Origin: a virus | Lineage: Duplodnaviria > Caudoviricetes | IMG/VR virus record: IMGVR_UViG_3300002092_000107 | Span: 1-35,884 of that record | Length of the DNA stretch: 35,884 nucleotides | Strand: one strand, 5' to 3' | Shown: one piece after another, positions 11,385 to 34,050 of the stretch | How positions within the stretch are numbered: position 1 is the stretch's first letter | How the letters are laid out: every line of letters starts with the position of its first letter | Notes under the pieces: generated by a model | What the model was told of the DNA's origin: nothing | What the model saw: only the letters and a program-made list of their open reading frames with translations | Database searches by the model: none | Translations under genes and position numbers: made by a program

Positions 11385-11422
11385 TTATCACAGATTGTAA
11401 TAATTATCACAAATTGTGATAA
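11385..11422. promoter_or_regulatory. Tandem 19-bp palindromic operators, copy 1
   Basis: TTATCACAGATTGTAATAA + TTATCACAAATTGTGATAA directly upstream of the Cro-like gene; overlaps a minus-strand TTATCA-17-TACAAT. Confidence 0.7.
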
Positions 11423-11901
11423 AGTCAAGTGTGATTTTAGGCTATTTTTTGATTTTATCACAAAATGTGCAAGCATGCACTACGCTCAAGTGTTTGATAT
11501 TTAAGGATTAAGTGTGAGGCGTAGTACGTTTATTACAGAAGTCCGAGGGGACATATAGCTTATTAACTTTTTACTGGTTTACTACGCTGATCGTACTATC
11601 ATGCACTTTGAAGGGTGGTGTAGTCCAGCGAAGCCCAGAGAGAGGAAAGATTAACGCTACGTATATCCTATGTGACTTGTGTAATAAATGATACTATCAT
11701 GCAACTTGACTAGCTACTTTAGGCGCTAAACCCCTGAAATTCCACAAACTTTCAAGCTTGCACAGTCACTTTGCAAAAATCGTCGCTGACACACCTACAA
11801 GCCATTGATAACAATGGACAATTCATGCTTGCACGCTGAAAGTGCAATCATATAACAGTCATGTACTACGCCCCCTCATAGTGAGGTATTTTAGAGCGTA
11901 A

Positions 11902-11938
11902 TTATCACAGATTGTAATAATTATCACAATTTGTGATA
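11902..11938. repeat. Tandem palindromic operators, copy 2 (37-bp direct repeat of 11385-11421, 1 mismatch)
   Basis: TTATCACAGATTGTAATAATTATCACAATTTGTGATA. Confidence 0.8.
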
Positions 11939-12279
11939 TTACTATGCAAGCCTGTCAAGATGCTAGGTTGCATAGTGCTGGGGCGTCTAGCGTGTGAAGG
12001 TGTAGCGCCCCATAGTGAAGGGTCTACACCGCCGTGTCATGCACTATGCAATCGTATTAGGTGTTAGGTTGCAAAGTAAACAGTTTCAGCGATAATGTTT
12101 CAAACTCGGGGGACGGAGGGCCTCGGGGTGGGGGTTTTTAAATTTTGGCAGGTTTGCCAAAAAGTGCGGCCAATTTTTTAAAAAATTTTGGCGCTACAAA
12201 CTACACCCCTCACTTTGCACAGTCATAAATTTTGTGCCCCGACCAGACGGAAAGCCAGCCACAACACCCCACCATCGTC

Positions 12280-12308
12280 TTGCGTCTTGCAATTAACCTA
12301 TGTACACT
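12280..12308 (+). promoter_or_regulatory. Putative promoter of the structured RNA
   Basis: TTGCGT-17-TACACT; 7 nt separate the -10 from G12316. Confidence 0.5.
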
Positions 12309-12315
12309 CTCATTT

Positions 12316-12435
12316 GGAACCGGCTCGGCATCTCCTGCCGGGGTGGGGATCCCGGTGGCCGCACCCTGCCGGAGGTGAGACGCTAAAGGCGCGGCCCGCG
12401 CAAAGCTCACTGCCGATCCCAACAGGCCCGGTTCC
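12316..12435 (+). ncRNA. Unassigned ~120-nt structured RNA (three-way junction)
   Basis: Nested pairings GGAACCGG/CCGGUUCC, UCGGCA/UGCCGA, CUCC..GGGUG/CACCC..GGAG, GUGAG..GCGCG/CGCGC..CUCAC; GC-rich island followed by a U-rich tract. Confidence 0.65.
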
Positions 12436-12451
12436 TTGACTTTTTGTGTGC

Positions 12452-12480
12452 TTGCAAAATGTAAAATTACATGGCATAGT
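12452..12480 (+). promoter_or_regulatory. Putative late-operon promoter
   Basis: TTGCAA-17-CATAGT with ATGTAA-AA-TTACAT palindrome in the spacer. Confidence 0.5.
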
Positions 12481-12519
12481 GCCCGGACAATTTAACGCCT
12501 TCCACATTAGGAGATTACT

Positions 12520-13190: not shown

Positions 13191-13667
13191 ATGGGTGTAG
13201 TCAACACAACGAAGTCGATCTTTGAAAAAGCAATGGGCCATCAGGCTGCGGCTCCTGAAGCCGAAGTGAAAATGCCCGAGCAACCTGCGCCTGACGAGAT
13301 CGGGCCGGATGAGGTCGAGGAAGACGAGCGCGACCGCGAGGGTAATACCGACCCGGGCACGAATGTTCCGGTCGAGGATCCTGAAGCCGCCGAGATCCGC
13401 CGCGCGGCGCTGCAACAGGCCGCTGACGACATCAACGCCGCAGCCTTGGCACAAGCTAAAATCGACGCTGAGCCGCGCACCGTTCCGGCACAAGCCATCA
13501 AAATCCAGTCGTTCAAGTACCTGACGATCGGCGCTAACAAAGGCATGTTCCACATCACCAGCACCGATAGCCTTGGCGCTACGTTTACGGAAACCGTCGA
13601 CGCGCCGCCCAACCTCACAGTGGCCGGCGTGGTCGAGTACCTCGAAGGCATCGCGTCAACCAAATGA
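13191..13667 (+). CDS. Hypothetical acidic protein
   Basis: GGAGGT RBS; ATGA-coupled to the KTSC gene. Confidence 0.7.
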   Translation: MGVVNTTKSIFEKAMGHQAAAPEAEVKMPEQPAPDEIGPDEVEEDERDREGNTDPGTNVPVEDPEAAEIRRAALQQAADDINAAALAQAKIDAEPRTVPAQAIKIQSFKYLTIGANKGMFHITSTDSLGATFTETVDAPPNLTVAGVVEYLEGIASTK

Positions 13668-13882
13668 TCCCGACAACGTGGTCTTCCGTTGACAGCAGCA
13701 ACGTCGACAGCATCAAGTACGACACCAACGGCAATAACTTGCACGTGCGGTTTAAAAACGGATCGGAATATATTTACGAGGGTGTAGAGCCGGAGCTTGT
13801 CGAGGGTTTGTACCACGCGAGTTCAGCCGGCAATTATTTGCGCGAGAACATCATCGGCACCTATACGCATCGCAAGGTGTAA
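13664..13882 (+). CDS. KTSC domain protein
   Basis: VDSSNVDSIKYD..LHVRFKNGSEYIYEGV..ASSAGNYLRENI. Confidence 0.9.
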   Translation: MIPTTWSSVDSSNVDSIKYDTNGNNLHVRFKNGSEYIYEGVEPELVEGLYHASSAGNYLRENIIGTYTHRKV

Positions 13883-13883
13883 C

Positions 13884-15863
13884 ATGGGTCAGCGCGAAGA
13901 ACTCCTCCGCGTATTCAACGAGGATCGCATCTATGCGCATGAGGTTTTGTTCGCGCACCGGCACAAGGATGTGACGCCGGAATTTCACAAGCAGACCCTG
14001 CAAAATTTTTATAGCCCGCACCCACTCGTTGCCGAAGAAGCTTTCCGTGGCGCGGCAAAATCAACACTGCTCGAAGAATATGTGATCCTCACCGCGCTGT
14101 TCCGCGAGTGCGTGTTCCCCATCTTTATTGGCAACGCCTATGGCATGGCGGTTGAACGTTTGACAGCGGTGAAACAAGAACTAACTAACAACGACGGGCT
14201 GATCGAGTTGTTCGGCGATCAGCATGGGCCGATCTGGTCTGAGGGTGAAATTGTCCTTGCCAACGGCATCAAGATCCAAGCGATCGGCGCACGCCAGTCC
14301 ATGCGCGGTGTCAAGCACAACGACCACCGGCCTGATCTCGCGCTCATTGACGATCTTGAAGACGAGGAGATGGTGTCGACCAAAGATGCCATCCTCAAAA
14401 ACAAACGCTGGTTCAACGGCACCATGCGCCCGGCGCTGGATCCCAAAGGCAAGATCCGCATGCTCGGCACGCCGCTGCATCCCGACGCGCTGATCGAGCA
14501 GGTGATGAAAAATCCTGACTGGATGACGCTGCGCTTCCCGATCTGCTACATCGACGACAAGGGTGTCGAGCAGTCGACATGGCCGGCACGCTTCCCGATG
14601 GAGTGGATCGCCAAACTGCGGCAGCAATATATCGAGGATGGTGCGCTGACCGAGTTCGAGCAGGAATACATGTGCCGGAGCGAAAGCGCCGCGCTCAAAC
14701 CTTTCAAGCCTGACATGATCCAAGTCGCGCCAGTGCGCACCACGTATCTTGCTAAAAAAATAATCGTTGACCCCGCAAGAACGGTTGACGAGAGGCGGTC
14801 GGCTCAGACAGGATATGTTGTCGAAAGCTGGATGGGTAACAAGCTCATCATGCACGAAGCTTTCGGGCGGTTCCATCGCCCTGATGAAATCGTCGATACA
14901 ATTTTCAAACTCGACGAGGAGTACAACCCTGTTGAGATCGCGGTCGAAGTCGATGGCTTGGAAGAATTTCTTATGCAGCCTCTGCGCAATGAGATGCTCA
15001 AGCGCGGGCGGGTTCTTCCAATTATTCCAGTGCGTGCGCCAAAAAATAAAGACGCTTTCATTACCGGGCTGCAACCGTTCTATATCGCAAAAGAAGTTAT
15101 CCACGCAAAATCTCTACCCGAGTTGGATGCTCAGCTTTTACAATTCCCGAAAGGGCGCAAAGACATTCTCAATGCTCAGGCATATGCGCTTCGCCTACGT
15201 TCAGGACAACCTGTGTACGAGGATTTTCAAGACGCGCACGTTGCCGAGGCGCTTGACATTGATGCCCGACGCCCTGCGTTTTTGGTCATGTCTGCTCGGC
15301 CTACTACAACGGGAGCGGCACTGGTGCAGCTTATCGACGGCACCGTTAGGATCTACAAAGATTGGATAGAAAATCGCACCCCGTTGGAATGCTTTAAAAA
15401 CATTCTCGACGACGCCACCCTCGTGGCCGCACGCAAGGTCGAGATCATCGTCCCCATGGAACAGTTTGAAAAATACACCGGCCATGGAATCCCGGGTGCC
15501 GCGCGACTGGCTCGGGCCGAAGTTAAGCCCGGGGCAATGGCTGTGACCTGCGAGGGCAACCTAAAAGATTATTTGAGCAAGACGGTACGCGGCGAACAGG
15601 CGCTGCTGATCGACATGGAGGCCCGGTGGGTTATCAACGCGTTCGCCGGCGGGTATGGGCGAAAGCTTAATACTCAAGGGGTTATATCGGACAAAGCCGA
15701 CGACAACCAATATCGCATAGTGATGGAAGCGATTGAGGCGTTCATCGGTTGGTTTGGCAATCTTAACGATAGCCGTGACAATGACCCAAATCGTCGGTAT
15801 GATACCACTAAGGACGGACGCCAGTTCCTGACCACCCTACCAGTAAGGCGACCACATGGCTGA
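13884..15863 (+). CDS. terL: Terminase large subunit with C-terminal extra domain
   Basis: FRGAAKST (Walker A), LALIDDLE (Walker B), LGTP, FEQEYM, IVDPA nuclease motif, FPKGRKDILNA. Start reassigned to ATG 13884. Confidence 0.92.
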   Translation: MGQREELLRVFNEDRIYAHEVLFAHRHKDVTPEFHKQTLQNFYSPHPLVAEEAFRGAAKSTLLEEYVILTALFRECVFPIFIGNAYGMAVERLTAVKQELTNNDGLIELFGDQHGPIWSEGEIVLANGIKIQAIGARQSMRGVKHNDHRPDLALIDDLEDEEMVSTKDAILKNKRWFNGTMRPALDPKGKIRMLGTPLHPDALIEQVMKNPDWMTLRFPICYIDDKGVEQSTWPARFPMEWIAKLRQQYIEDGALTEFEQEYMCRSESAALKPFKPDMIQVAPVRTTYLAKKIIVDPARTVDERRSAQTGYVVESWMGNKLIMHEAFGRFHRPDEIVDTIFKLDEEYNPVEIAVEVDGLEEFLMQPLRNEMLKRGRVLPIIPVRAPKNKDAFITGLQPFYIAKEVIHAKSLPELDAQLLQFPKGRKDILNAQAYALRLRSGQPVYEDFQDAHVAEALDIDARRPAFLVMSARPTTTGAALVQLIDGTVRIYKDWIENRTPLECFKNILDDATLVAARKVEIIVPMEQFEKYTGHGIPGAARLARAEVKPGAMAVTCEGNLKDYLSKTVRGEQALLIDMEARWVINAFAGGYGRKLNTQGVISDKADDNQYRIVMEAIEAFIGWFGNLNDSRDNDPNRRYDTTKDGRQFLTTLPVRRPHG

Positions 15864-18036: not shown

Positions 18037-18423
18037 ATGGTCAACACAGCGGCATACATGCGGGCCTATCGCGCCAAAAACAAAGATAAAGTTCGGCAAT
18101 GGGAAAAGAACCGTCGGGAGCGGGACAAAGGTGATCGCGCTGAAAGACAGCAGGTTCGGCACTATAAAAAATCTTACGGGTTGCCGCCGGCAGAATGCAG
18201 GTTGATGAAGGCACGCGGTTGCGATATTTGCGGCCGGCACAGACAGGTTATGTGCATTGACCACTGCCATGAAACGGGAAAAGTAAGAGGCGTTTTGTGC
18301 AACAAATGCAACACCGCATTAGGTTTCTTGGACGAAGACGTAGTGCTAATGCAAAAAATGATTGCTTACACAATTTCAAAGTGTCAACCCCTTAAAGTAC
18401 TACTTGCCAAAGTGAATGGCTAA
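18037..18423 (+). CDS. Endonuclease VII-like His-Me (homing) endonuclease
   Basis: CDICG..IDHCHETGKVRGVLCNKCNTALG. Confidence 0.88.
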   Translation: MVNTAAYMRAYRAKNKDKVRQWEKNRRERDKGDRAERQQVRHYKKSYGLPPAECRLMKARGCDICGRHRQVMCIDHCHETGKVRGVLCNKCNTALGFLDEDVVLMQKMIAYTISKCQPLKVLLAKVNG

Positions 18424-18502: not shown

Positions 18503-19282
18503 ATGCCGCCAGAAGATACCGAAGACCAAGTTGATACCAATACCGTTGTTGACGATGAAGTCGAGTTAGATCCCGCAGAGGATGACGATGATCTTTTACC
18601 CGACGACGAAGACGACAATGAAGGCGACGATGAAGACGAAGATGAAGGCAAAGGTGATGTCGACCCTGCTGCCGCAGCACCGCAAGGTGGTGATGGTAAG
18701 CAACCAAGCCGGCGAACCCTTCGCGTTCAGAAACTAGAGAAGGAACGAGACGCCGAACGCCAGAAGGCTGCTGAATTGCAAGCTCGACTGGACGGCATCT
18801 TGATGGCGCAGCGCCAACCTGCACAGGATGATGCTGCACTACGCGCCGAACAAGCTAGAGTTGCCGCAATGGATCCCGTCGAGCGGGAGCGTTACGAAGA
18901 CAAAAAGCGGATCGACGCACTTCAGGCTCAGGTTTCAAATCTTGGCTTCGCACAGGCCGACGGTTTGGATCGCGCAAGGTTTGAGGCGAAAGCGGAACTT
19001 AACCCCGTCTATAAAAAGTACGCACCTGCCGTTGAAAGGGCTTTGGAAGAAATGCGTGCCAAGGGCGTCAACACAACGCGCGAAGCACTGCTGACCTACA
19101 AACTTGGAGAGGCAGCGCGGAAGAAGTTGGAAGCTGGTGCCGGTGATGGGAAGCGTCGTAGAGAGGCCGCTCAGAACCGCGTCAGTAAAGTGAATGGTCG
19201 ACCAGCAAATATGCGGGGCGACAGTTCAGGCACAGGTAAAGTCAAAACCGAAGAAGATCGTCTTCGCGGTGTTCAAATCTAA
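18503..19282 (+). CDS. Scaffolding protein
   Basis: Very acidic N-terminus, coiled coil, position between portal and capsid genes. Confidence 0.75.
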   Translation: MPPEDTEDQVDTNTVVDDEVELDPAEDDDDLLPDDEDDNEGDDEDEDEGKGDVDPAAAAPQGGDGKQPSRRTLRVQKLEKERDAERQKAAELQARLDGILMAQRQPAQDDAALRAEQARVAAMDPVERERYEDKKRIDALQAQVSNLGFAQADGLDRARFEAKAELNPVYKKYAPAVERALEEMRAKGVNTTREALLTYKLGEAARKKLEAGAGDGKRRREAAQNRVSKVNGRPANMRGDSSGTGKVKTEEDRLRGVQI

Positions 19283-30048: not shown

Positions 30049-32196
30049 ATGGCGATTGCATATAACCAGCAGACTGGCGAGGCGCTCTACTCAGAAGGCA
30101 GCGAATGGAAACCCGCAAAAATAGCTATGAACCCAAAAACCGGCGAGCGCGTGGCGTTCGATGGGAAAGCATGGCAACCGCTGCAATCGAAGCCACTGCC
30201 CGGCAAAACGGAAGACGGATTGACCACCGGCAGCAAATTTGCCGACAAAACGCTCGATGTGTTGGGTGGCCCCACCTACGCAACCAATGAAGCCATTTAT
30301 CACGGTAAGGAAAGCGGCGACATCCTGAAGCAGGGCGTCAAGGACATTCCGTCGAGCTTTGTCAACCGTGAGAAGCAGGATTGGCAGGGCGTTAAACAGG
30401 CATTCGAAGATACTGGCAAAGCCGAAGGCCCGGTCAGCGGCATGTATAACGCCGGCAAGACGGCGTTGCGTGCGATCGGCATGCCTTTCGAAGCTATCAA
30501 CGTTCCATTAGAAAATACCTATGGCCGCATGGCTCAGGCTGGCGCAGCGCACCACGGCACGGAGCTGAAGCCCGAGGAAGCCGCGATCGTGCCCGAAATG
30601 GCATTGCCGGGCGGCATTGGCGGTAAAGCCAAAACAATCCCCAAAGCCGTCGCTGCTGACGAGGCCACCGCTGCCGCCGCAGGGCGCATAGGCATCAACG
30701 CTAACCGCGTTAAGGATGCCGACCAGATGCAGGACGCCCTGCGCACCGGGATTAATCAAACGAAGGGTGACATCACCACGGCCAAAGGTGTCGCGCCGGT
30801 CGCTTCCGATCGGGAACTGGCCGAGCAAGTTGCTAAAGGCATCGGTGACAAACGCGATCAGGTCAAGGCGCTTGAAAACGTGCGGTGGGAAAAAGCAAAA
30901 GAGGCCGGCGCACTCATTCCTGCTGATGGCGTTTCCAATATCGAGGATCTTCGCCGCATGGTTGGCCAGATCGGTAAAGAGTTGAAGGGCACTGGTGGCG
31001 AGCTTGCTTCAGATTTGCGCAGCCAGAAGTTAGGTCACGATAGCGATATCCTTGATCTACGCGATAAGATCCATGAACTTGAAGAAGCAAACGTTGCCGG
31101 CGAACATGTGAGTGAGCTTGGCAAAGCTAAAATGGAATTGAAGGCCAAGCGCCTTGAAACCGCGCGGCAGCAACTAGACCAAAAATTAAAAATATCTGAC
31201 AACCTCGAACAGCGTATCGCTGAAGCCGACAAAGCTGAAAAAGCCGCCGATACAGGATCTTTGCCTACAAAAATTGAAACTGCCGCAGACCTTATTCAAT
31301 TGAAGCAACACCTAAACGATGTCAACCCTGCCAACCTATCTGCTGTTGAATTGACACGTCTGAAAGACAGTAAGGCTGCTGTGGACGCTGCGCTTGGCGA
31401 ATTAAAAGGAGCAAAGCCAAATATTAAGCTTTCGGCCAATTCAAAATTACGTTTCCAAGATCCCAATAAAATCAATTTTGGTGATTTGCTGACCAAGGCT
31501 AACCGACGCACTGAGGTAAATGCCGAACGCTATGGCGGTGACGCTGCCAAACAACTCGGTGTCGACAAGGCATTTATCGCCGCAGAAAAGAAAACAGGTC
31601 GCCCGCTGGTCGGCAAGGATGCTACCACTAATGCGATCGCCGGGACTGAAGGCATTGTTGATCGCATTCAAAGCACCGCACATGTCGATTGGCTTAAGGC
31701 CAATATGCGCCCGAAGGCGTTCAATCAGTTGATGGCGAATAAGCTCGCCAAAACTCTGGATGAAGTGGGGTGGGATGCTGACGCCCTGCGGCAGAACCGA
31801 GAATTTTTAAATTATGTGGTTAATGATGGCGTGGGTATGAAAACCAAAGTTGTGCAGCAAAAACTCGACGACCTGCAAACGATATTGGATAAGGCGGAAG
31901 CTGCCGGCGCGTCGGGTAAAATGTTAGGCAAAGCCTATCGCGGCAAAGATCCAAACGTAACCCGAGCTTTAAACGCCGCTAAAGCGGCATCGGCCACGGT
32001 TGCGGCTGGTGGACACCCTACGACATATGCGCTAGCCAAGGCGGCTGAAACTCTTGGTGGCGGAGGCACGGCGGAAGCTAAGCGGCTTATGCAAATGCAA
32101 AAGGAACTAAAGCTTAAAACGCCGAAGTATATCCCCGGCGAAGCTATCGGCGCCGCGCTCGGAGGTAATTCGGCGTCCGGCTTCAAGGATCAATAA
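30049..32196 (+). CDS. Ejection/internal virion protein 3
   Basis: Start reassigned to ATG 30049; duplicated N-terminal AxNxxTGE..W motif; long helical protein. Confidence 0.65.
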   Translation: MAIAYNQQTGEALYSEGSEWKPAKIAMNPKTGERVAFDGKAWQPLQSKPLPGKTEDGLTTGSKFADKTLDVLGGPTYATNEAIYHGKESGDILKQGVKDIPSSFVNREKQDWQGVKQAFEDTGKAEGPVSGMYNAGKTALRAIGMPFEAINVPLENTYGRMAQAGAAHHGTELKPEEAAIVPEMALPGGIGGKAKTIPKAVAADEATAAAAGRIGINANRVKDADQMQDALRTGINQTKGDITTAKGVAPVASDRELAEQVAKGIGDKRDQVKALENVRWEKAKEAGALIPADGVSNIEDLRRMVGQIGKELKGTGGELASDLRSQKLGHDSDILDLRDKIHELEEANVAGEHVSELGKAKMELKAKRLETARQQLDQKLKISDNLEQRIAEADKAEKAADTGSLPTKIETAADLIQLKQHLNDVNPANLSAVELTRLKDSKAAVDAALGELKGAKPNIKLSANSKLRFQDPNKINFGDLLTKANRRTEVNAERYGGDAAKQLGVDKAFIAAEKKTGRPLVGKDATTNAIAGTEGIVDRIQSTAHVDWLKANMRPKAFNQLMANKLAKTLDEVGWDADALRQNREFLNYVVNDGVGMKTKVVQQKLDDLQTILDKAEAAGASGKMLGKAYRGKDPNVTRALNAAKAASATVAAGGHPTTYALAKAAETLGGGGTAEAKRLMQMQKELKLKTPKYIPGEAIGAALGGNSASGFKDQ

Positions 32197-32465
32197 TGGA
32201 CGGCTCGGTTTTAGACATCAAAGGCGCGGCAATTAGGCATCCTAAAACTGGCATCATCTACACCGGCCCTACCCACCCCGAAATTGCTAAAGAATATGGC
32301 TTTCCGGGATCTGGTGATTACTGGCATCATAACCGCAAGAACGCCGGCTTCGTCTTACGTGATGGATCTTTTGTTAATCGCGATCAGGCACTGAATCGGT
32401 ACGGCGTTGACGAGACACACGCCATGGAAGACGCACAAGAAAAATACCGGGAGGCTCACCGATGA
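32196..32465 (+). CDS. Small phage protein (AAIR..YTG..H..GFV..GxFVxR motif)
   Basis: Coupled at both ends (TAATG, ATGA). Confidence 0.7.
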   Translation: MDGSVLDIKGAAIRHPKTGIIYTGPTHPEIAKEYGFPGSGDYWHHNRKNAGFVLRDGSFVNRDQALNRYGVDETHAMEDAQEKYREAHR

Positions 32466-33775
32466 AAATTCTAGTTATTGACAAATACGGGGCATCGCTC
32501 AACTGGACACGCCGCTGCGTCGCCGATGGCCACAAAGTGAAATGGTATGTGCCCACTGATGAAAAAGTGGCGCTGGTGGGAAAGGGCATCGTTGAGCGCG
32601 TGTCAGATCCGCGCGAGTGGTATCGTTGGGCTGACATGATCTTTTTCACTGACAACACTAAATGGTTGCATGAGGCCGATGCATGGCGTGCTGCCGGCTG
32701 GCCGGTAATTGGCCCGGGCGTTGAAGGGGCGAAGTGGGAAATCCTTCGTGATGTCGGCCAGAAAGTGTTCAAAGCCGCTGGCATCAAGGTTGCCGACAGT
32801 AAAAAATTCACGACGTATGATCCTGCCATCGCCTATGTCAAGCGCGAGATGCGCCGCTTCGTCTCGAAGCCCTGCGGCGACGAGGAAAACAAGGCGTTGT
32901 CGTACTGCTCGAAATCACCCGCTGACATGGTTTACATGCTCGAGCGCTGGAAGAAAAACAAGACACTTGCTGGGGAATTTATACTTCAGGAGTTCACCGG
33001 TGGCACCGAGATGGCTGTGGGCGGCTGGTTCGGCCCCGGTGGCTTCAACCGTGGTTGGTGTGAGAATTTCGAATTTAAAAAGCTAATGAACGGGGATCTC
33101 GGAGTTGCCACAGGTGAGCAGGGTACTGTTGTTCGCCATGTTGCCAAATCGCTCTTGGCCGACAAGGTGTTAAAACCTGTCGAGAGTGCGCTGGAAAAAA
33201 TTAACTATGTGGGATATATTGATGTCAACTGCATCATCGACGACCAAGGGGTGCCTATGCCTTTGGAGTTTACGATGCGTCCGGGCTGGCCGTTGTTTAA
33301 CATTGAGCAAGCGGTGCATAAAGGGGATCACGCAGAATGGTTGATGCAACTATACGAGGGCAAGGACGCCCGCAACTTCGAGTTGGACACGGTGATAGTC
33401 GGCGTGGTGATGTCGATACCGGATTACCCGTACAGCCACTTCACGAGGAAGGAAGTGAACGGAGTACCGCTCTATGGAATGACGAAATCAATCGAGCATT
33501 CAGTGCATCCCTGCGAGATGATGATGGGGGAAGCGCCGCTGGAAGTGAACGGCAAGCTCCAAAACTCCCCGATGCTTTGCTCAGCGGGGGATTACGTCCT
33601 AGTGACGACGGGAACGGGGGAGACGATCTCGGAGGCGAAGAAGGGAGCCTATCGGGTCTTGAAAAAATTAAGCATGCCCAACTCCCCGATGTATCGGACG
33701 GATATCGGCGACAGGTTGAAGAAGCAATTGCCGGTAATACAGCAGATGGGCTACGCCGCCAATTTGAAGTTTTAG
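32462..33775 (+). CDS. PurD-like ATP-grasp ligase
   Basis: FILQEF..GTE, NFEFKKLMNGDLGVATGEQGT, LEFTMRPGWP, YRTDIG correspond to phosphoribosylamine-glycine ligase motifs. Confidence 0.85.
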   Translation: MKILVIDKYGASLNWTRRCVADGHKVKWYVPTDEKVALVGKGIVERVSDPREWYRWADMIFFTDNTKWLHEADAWRAAGWPVIGPGVEGAKWEILRDVGQKVFKAAGIKVADSKKFTTYDPAIAYVKREMRRFVSKPCGDEENKALSYCSKSPADMVYMLERWKKNKTLAGEFILQEFTGGTEMAVGGWFGPGGFNRGWCENFEFKKLMNGDLGVATGEQGTVVRHVAKSLLADKVLKPVESALEKINYVGYIDVNCIIDDQGVPMPLEFTMRPGWPLFNIEQAVHKGDHAEWLMQLYEGKDARNFELDTVIVGVVMSIPDYPYSHFTRKEVNGVPLYGMTKSIEHSVHPCEMMMGEAPLEVNGKLQNSPMLCSAGDYVLVTTGTGETISEAKKGAYRVLKKLSMPNSPMYRTDIGDRLKKQLPVIQQMGYAANLKF

Positions 33776-34050
33776 AAGCGGATCCCAACAAGCTTGATGC
33801 CGCCGTCGACCTTGCGCTCAATACAGCGATTGACATTCTTGAACTGGAATACCTGCCCACCAGCCACACGGATTATTATCGTCAGTTGACCTTGAAGAAG
33901 GACACGCTGAGCGTTGTGATTAACGCCGGCCTGAAGGCTGACGAAAACCGCTTTCGTCGTAAGCAGCATGATGTGGTGGCAAAACTATTTGCGATCGCAC
34001 GCGCGGATAAGAAACTCCTGCCGATTATCGAGAACCCGCCGCAGCTTTAA
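33337..34050 (+). CDS. Hypothetical protein overlapping the ATP-grasp gene by 439 nt
   Basis: Only Met in the frame, preceded by AAGGGGA; C-terminal ~90 aa beyond the overlap is globular-looking. Confidence 0.6.
   Translation: MVDATIRGQGRPQLRVGHGDSRRGDVDTGLPVQPLHEEGSERSTALWNDEINRAFSASLRDDDGGSAAGSERQAPKLPDALLSGGLRPSDDGNGGDDLGGEEGSLSGLEKIKHAQLPDVSDGYRRQVEEAIAGNTADGLRRQFEVLEADPNKLDAAVDLALNTAIDILELEYLPTSHTDYYRQLTLKKDTLSVVINAGLKADENRFRRKQHDVVAKLFAIARADKKLLPIIENPPQL

Follow-up and report, generated by a model that had tools for sequence, protein, structure and literature searches.

Few examples of conserved long same-strand overlaps are known in tailed phages. Rz/Rz1 of lambda and T7 are nested spanin genes, out of frame on the same strand, with an internal start. 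Long codirectional overlaps are held to be nearly absent in prokaryotes (10.1101/724807), and in a study cited there, all 715 codirectional overlaps of >60 bp seemed to be nonexisting. Overprinting itself is well known in viruses; in genes such as B, E, and K of phiX174, a younger, disorder-prone +2 frame lies on an ancestral frame, and +2-frame de novo proteins are reported to be more disordered in the review treating them (PMC8227390). The locus described here, where a gene that we call X overlaps a ligase gene, is a conserved new case. It shares with the phiX174-type genes the ancestral frame and the younger, disorder-prone +2 frame, but it lies in a tailed double-stranded DNA phage of ~42 kb that shows no obvious pressure on genome size, the new part is confined to an N-terminal extension, the overlap has been naturally undone repeatedly, and the host frame is an accessory gene whereas the overprinted frame leads into a core gene. 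Like Rz/Rz1, X is a conserved same-strand, out-of-frame gene of a tailed phage with an internal start; unlike them, it has no membrane anchor or lipoprotein, its overlap is partial rather than nested, and its product is not known to partner with that of the ligase.

X can also be compared with the terminase small subunit (TerS), an essential protein with a two-helix oligomerization core and N-terminal DNA-binding parts (PMC9958956), homologues of which are used by satellites to redirect packaging (PMC9618062). Similar to TerS (T4 gp16/44RR2; PMC9958956), X has two long antiparallel predicted helices and variable N-terminal modules, and it is present in one copy per genome and carried by satellites (PMC9618062). 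However, X has no sequence or fold match to TerS, has no helix-turn-helix here, and is not adjacent to the gene for the terminase large subunit (TerL).

The DNA studied (IMGVR_UViG_3300002092_000107, positions 1 to 35,884; Caudoviricetes), referred to as the window throughout its 35,884 nt, covers most of a podovirus-like phage genome of ~42 kb. The minus strand encodes a DNA polymerase A, a SNF2 helicase, and an exonuclease; the plus strand encodes TerL, an SU10-type portal, capsid, adaptor, an acetyltransferase, and three probable ejection proteins, so labeled from gene position. The plus-strand genes end with the one for a PurD-like ATP-grasp ligase, followed by X, and a tail-fiber operon converges on both. 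An 89-aa open reading frame (ORF) at 32196 to 32465, with no family match, is coupled to the ligase start. A long gap at 11400 to 12500 separates the divergent early and late operons and is a candidate promoter and packaging-site region. A promoter/terminator scan gave signals no better than chance. An endonuclease VII gene lies between the portal and scaffold genes (18037 to 18423) and is missing from the close relative G006. TerL has ~220 extra C-terminal residues (window 15200 to 15863), conserved in 40 aligned relatives, which by eye resemble a second, degenerate RNase-H-like nuclease domain. The features of the overlap are as follows.

32462..33775, plus strand: PurD-like ATP-grasp ligase, 437 aa (GARS_A, residues 100 to 275; GARS_C, residues 313 to 418); host frame of the overlap
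33321..33327, plus strand: Shine-Dalgarno (SD)-like site AAGGGGA, within ligase codons Lys287-Gly288-Asp289
33337..34050, plus strand: gene X, 237 aa, in the -1 (+2) frame relative to the ligase; its ATG consists of the last base of the Glu292 codon and bases of the Trp293 codon
33337..33775, plus strand: overprinted part of X, residues 1 to 146; Gly/Asp/Arg-rich, predicted to be mostly disordered
33661..33670, plus strand: GAAAAAATTA, a proposed slippery site; not conserved
33757..34011, plus strand: helical core of X, with helices at about residues 141 to 148, 151 to 169, and 180 to 225; mean pLDDT of 87

The initial annotation read this ORF as a probable overprinted gene. That reading is supported, with the refinement that overprinting is limited to the N-terminal 146 residues of X. 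The -1 frame is indeed stop-free over the 439 nt shared with the ligase; synonymous codon resampling predicted 7.7 stops for this stretch, with not one stop-free outcome in 20,000 trials. As also claimed, the only Met of X is residue 1 and has a good SD, AAGGGGA, 9 nt 5' of the ATG. The duplex energy of this site (-7.8 kcal/mol) was the best among the nine start-like codons located within codons 1 to 170, the runner-up being -3.3. The described shift in ligase codon choice was also evident: Thr was encoded by ACG at 8/8 positions in the overlap versus 3/12 upstream, none of the Gly, Thr, Val, Ala, or Pro codons within the overlap ended in T, and T occupied 1/64 four-fold sites there versus 36/136 outside. 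Contigs of three further runs (X2 to X4) span the stretch in exact pieces with no indel listed inside the overlap; therefore, a sequencing slip is unlikely. Among the sequencing runs listed for the stretch, none was of RNA.

We evaluated conservation of the open frame in 178 relatives of the ligase, of which the best 80 were kept (63 distinct; 51 representatives <90% identical). Stops were counted without row selection, only at sites at which a -1 stop could arise through a synonymous T. Before ligase codon 300, the 51 representatives (from the best 80 of 178) carried -1 stops at 502 of 2,765 possible sites; after it, they did so at 25 of 1,056. Four relatives without the overlap accounted for 23 of these 25 late stops (23/110 sites), and the remaining 47 representatives carried 2 in 946 late sites. 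The +1 frame showed no stop depletion in the 51 representatives. Stops in the overlap frame of homologs, with the gene starting near 33770, had been named as the observation that would speak against X; instead, an open frame reaching the downstream domain was found in 45 of 50 representatives and was missing from 5 (L037 was counted apart). The open length from the start site was ~145 to 155 codons in 44 representatives and 107 codons in L057, and the overlap was maintained among ligases merely 52 to 68% identical. L037, which has a partial second copy of the region, was excluded from the start, SD, four-fold/heptamer, and T3 analyses and analyzed separately. These counts confirm that the second frame is protected from stops beyond chance and that the observation is real and conserved.

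The start site is under selection as well. Stops were frequent through ligase codon 291 and then ended at Glu292-Trp293, the position of the ATG in the window. The base before the Trp codon was A in 36 of 46 relatives (14.9 expected from codon usage); junctions before other Trp codons, used as controls, showed a smaller excess (88/467 versus 63.5 expected). Among the 45 overlap representatives, the start codons were ATG (36), GTG (7), TTG (1), and CTG (1). Anti-SD pairing in 46 relatives averaged -6.15 kcal/mol versus -5.24 kcal/mol after resampling, and 0 of 300 simulated means were as strong. The Gly288 codon was GGA in 17/44 cases versus 11/85 at other Gly-Asp pairs. As counterevidence, the ATG was still present in two of the four no-overlap representatives. 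Judged from these sequence comparisons, the overlapping gene is very probably translated. An additional ATG is found at the ligase stop in some relatives (the L006 group, L076, and L079); with these and the 107 open codons of L057, shorter forms of X may exist.

As the alternative raised in the initial annotation, a programmed -1 frameshift at GAAAAAATTA (33661) would yield a ligase-X fusion; the ATG would then be incidental. The sequence G AAA AAA at 33661 occurs in the window and in the 97%-identical L003, but a slippery heptamer was present at the site in only 1 of 50 representatives and is absent from the 85%-identical L004. Stop depletion is already evident from the ATG onward, ~100 codons 5' of 33661, both the ATG and the SD are enriched among relatives, and the duplicated copy in L037 restarts X independently; weakly pointing the same way, searches found no fusion of greater length. 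Frameshifting is thus not supported and is extremely unlikely. A start near 33770 by an unusual codon or reinitiation, with the open frame as a by-product of codon bias, is very unlikely: although a few relatives carry an ATG at the ligase stop, the window has no start-like codon with an SD there. The -1 frame does echo the conservation of the ligase, as such a by-product would, but the same genes have normal stop rates before codon 292, and the no-overlap genes have them throughout.

The open second frame is accompanied by constraint on synonymous sites of the ligase, a check suggested in the initial annotation. Four-fold divergence was 336/1,107 (0.304) in the overlap versus 774/1,745 (0.444) outside (17 disjoint pairs, P = 6e-14). 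Of the three no-overlap pairs, one was also less divergent in the 3' region (8/71 versus 35/134 synonymous), and G3 increased in the 3' region of no-overlap genes as well. T3 fell from 14.7% to 5 to 6% at ligase codons 293 to 400, even at positions incapable of forming stops, and this drop was absent from no-overlap genes; the residue composition of the overprinted part therefore seems to be under selection. Constraint at the level of individual residues is weak, because merely 2 of 59 columns are nearly fixed.

The overlap has natural controls. On the ligase tree, a quick tree in which the outgroup forms a long branch, the no-overlap genes require four changes, all forced by well-supported branches; the simplest reading of this topology would be one origin and four losses. 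After each loss a separate X was found, clearly in three cases (G002, E = 4e-17; G003/G023, E = 3e-6; G005/G025/G028, E = 8e-5 or better) and weakly in G004 (hhalign E = 0.0033, probability of 9.7%; missed by HMMER). G001, a 31% fragment, yielded no X. In G003 (L145:957-6872), ~12 tandem paralogous Ala-rich ORFs with a common leader lie just 5' of the stand-alone X.

G019 duplicated the region and separated the two frames. Its first copy (L037 copy 1) has an intact ligase and four stops in the X frame; its second, a partial duplicate, has two ligase-frame stops and an open X frame of 155 codons from a TTG with an SD and, by eye, retains both ends of the overprinted part. An endonuclease VII gene (L093:7151-7819), antisense at the ligase end, precedes the partial duplicate. 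Some short X proteins also preserve overprinted text: the last 42 overprinted residues were matched at E < 0.01 by 8 of 57 (a partly hand-picked set), and by locus, such a match occurred at 1 of the 10 phage loci lacking the ligase and at none of the 7 loci in islands or elsewhere. On these matches, some stand-alone X genes seem to be freed descendants of the overlapping form; the DNA context is known for one, L099. A ligase-frame relic was not detectable upstream of stand-alone X genes in 17 loci. The ligase of L079 extends ~27 codons more, so that the overlap enters the first helix of X, and P0150 resembles a freed relative.

Regarding the two products, the ligase shares ATP-grasp and GARS_C domains with PurD, the phosphoribosylamine-glycine ligase (TIGR00877); unlike PurD, it lies among virion genes and scores 80.4 bits, below the equivalog cutoff of 288. 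PurD homology spans the overlap, up to ligase residue 418, and a 47%-identical outgroup ligase of a distant phage has neither the overlap nor X; therefore, the ligase frame is ancestral and only the front end of X arose de novo. This ligase ORF (MW202796.1, 42140 to 43456) is left unannotated in the public record.

The C-terminal hairpin of X is an older family than the overprinted front end. The initial annotation had predicted a helical C domain, and the AlphaFold model contains helices at about residues 150 to 226. Residues 1 to 115 were modeled at low confidence (pLDDT < 50) without helices, and the remainder formed a helical hairpin (mean pLDDT of 87 in the hairpin model). The disorder proposed for the N-terminal part agrees with this model; its proposed acidity is only modest (27 Asp plus Glu and 17 Lys plus Arg, with 22 Gly, in residues 1 to 146). 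The hairpin profile matched 1,143 representatives at E ≤ 0.001. Gene callers sometimes predict the overlap form, because 54 of the best 150 hairpin matches are full-length overlap forms; many others are 125 to 160 aa long. In the nine clusters checked, family members were either hypothetical or had no name, and none was found in cultured phage records. One hairpin match was carried by 37 of 39 ligase-selected records. Matches extending to the hairpin, as opposed to the overprinted part alone, numbered 45 of 47. Six phage loci that lack the ligase have X by itself at the equivalent position behind the ejection genes, and the ligase was not matched in three such records that are ≥95% complete (a search run with no positive control).

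The hairpin family is also found in integrase-primase islands. X was identified in a 9.3-kb island of this kind, bounded by 46-bp att repeats at tRNA-Lys, in an alphaproteobacterial genome; similar X-bearing islands are L106, L109, and L124. A further X-like gene, shorter and oppositely oriented, follows the primase in islands (L219:13499-13882 [-], E = 2e-5; L106:6475-6867 [-], E = 4e-4), a possible partner or inhibitor. The X-containing frames L121:1385-2107 and L124:5353-6054 have an N-terminal winged-helix look by eye and no family match.

Our best guess for the function of X, from context and domain fusions, is TerS, with the balance even between its being right and wrong. A structure search of the C domain, TerS included, had been suggested; the genomic context lends support, and the fold searches (full model and hairpin model) gave nothing above background, with a best Z of 6.6 to generic hairpins and no TerS listed, a result that excludes nothing. 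Searches of 150 X members against families gave no match, one TerS PHROG appearing at E = 0.066. Scans of X and its relatives against Pfam (a copy without the T5 TerS family), PHROGs, and NCBIfam found nothing consistent, a PDB sequence search with the X profile reached a best E value of 0.25, and an Atlas search with the X core of the window gave no usable match. The nearest named Atlas clusters were T5 TerS (0.87) and DUF5681 (0.83), which are leads only, 0.87 being below the bar of the tool.

Genome context bears on this assignment from both sides. The only conserved gene upstream of TerL is a KTSC-domain gene, which directly precedes TerL in 33 of 44 loci (window copy, 13664 to 13882). Terminase_2 was detected in 0 of 33 records, with the control detected, and the P22-type TerS family had no match anywhere in the 33 records, in a search that was uninformative. 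In the window, X lies 18 kb from TerL rather than next to it, as would be expected of a TerS gene; in G002, and for the weak G004 copy, it lies 0.5 to 1.5 kb from TerL and is divergent from KTSC/TerL. An HGGxSTG domain is fused to X in L133, probably also in G004, and is adjacent to X in G002. This domain is also encoded by gene 1 in cultured phages of Bacillus and Staphylococcus (annotated as TerS in 2 of 15), but it stands alone in G035; the Bacillus TerS core did not align with X, and a literature search found no work linking HGGxSTG to terminase. The X of the window has no N-terminal helix-turn-helix, and some relatives carry HGGxSTG instead. P22 gp3 and T7 gp18 are terminase small subunits, and P22 gp3 likewise is not known to have a helix-turn-helix. 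Also counting against TerS, other small universal genes without a name are present in these genomes.

Two other functions are each unlikely. X could be a regulator of replication or transcription, such as a partner of the primase or a factor controlling late genes, which satellites carry for their own cycle. The failure to find a TerS match for X would fit, as would its location directly 5' of a prim-pol/VapE gene in G003, G005/G025, and islands L109 and L219; the placement just 5' of the primase gene in G003 and G005 also weighs against TerS. However, X is the last late-operon gene in most phages, after the ejection genes, and it co-occurs both with the lytic-type DNA polymerase A and with integrase-bearing replication modules. 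That same position after the ejection genes, together with the disordered charged region and amphipathic helices, would suit a head-assembly or virion protein (a scaffold-like helper, capsid-size factor, or ejected protein), and satellites often encode helical proteins that redirect capsids. Against such a role, a separate gene occupies the scaffold position (18503 to 19282) in 7/7 genomes compared, X is fused to the HGGxSTG domain, and X relocates to early operons.

Overall, we favor, at a probability of roughly 50%, an internally started X composed of an overprinted front end and an older hairpin, possibly TerS. While the ligase is being translated from the late transcript, ribosomes would likely bind at the internal SD and produce the 237-aa X, and the position of this start inside an actively translated frame would hold the level of X down. 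The hairpin would form an oligomeric ring and engage TerL. Historically, an accessory ligase may have landed between the last ejection-protein gene and X, which would then have taken its start from within the ligase, so that the 3' third of the ligase would now carry two messages. The optional enzyme is thereby tied to a needed gene, because deletion of the ligase removes the start of X. Possible escape routes are gain of another X, duplication of the region, or ligase loss with overprinted scraps retained, and each observed escape appears to supply X by another route. Given the composition bias and the motifs retained, part of the disordered front end may be functional.

A literature search found nothing on this locus, nor any work joining phage virion, purD/ATP-grasp, and overlapping genes; subscription papers fell mostly outside the search, and supplementary gene tables could list the ORF. 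Annotation pipelines will truncate or drop genes such as X. With four losses, a frame-splitting duplication, and freed genes that retain overprinted text as natural controls, the 439-nt overlap is a tractable system for following the origin, constraint, and release of a de novo segment. It is a tentative and somewhat doubtful joint reading that an uncultured podovirus family hides the start of an essential, unrecognized TerS 146 codons inside an optional enzyme gene, entangling the enzyme with packaging; that the overprinted text gained function, in that a short motif which arose by reading the C-terminal motif of PurD in the -1 frame is kept after gene separation; and that satellites hijack these phages by means of this subunit, which they carry as well. 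X could thus be the TerS that is missing in a large phage family and in its satellites.
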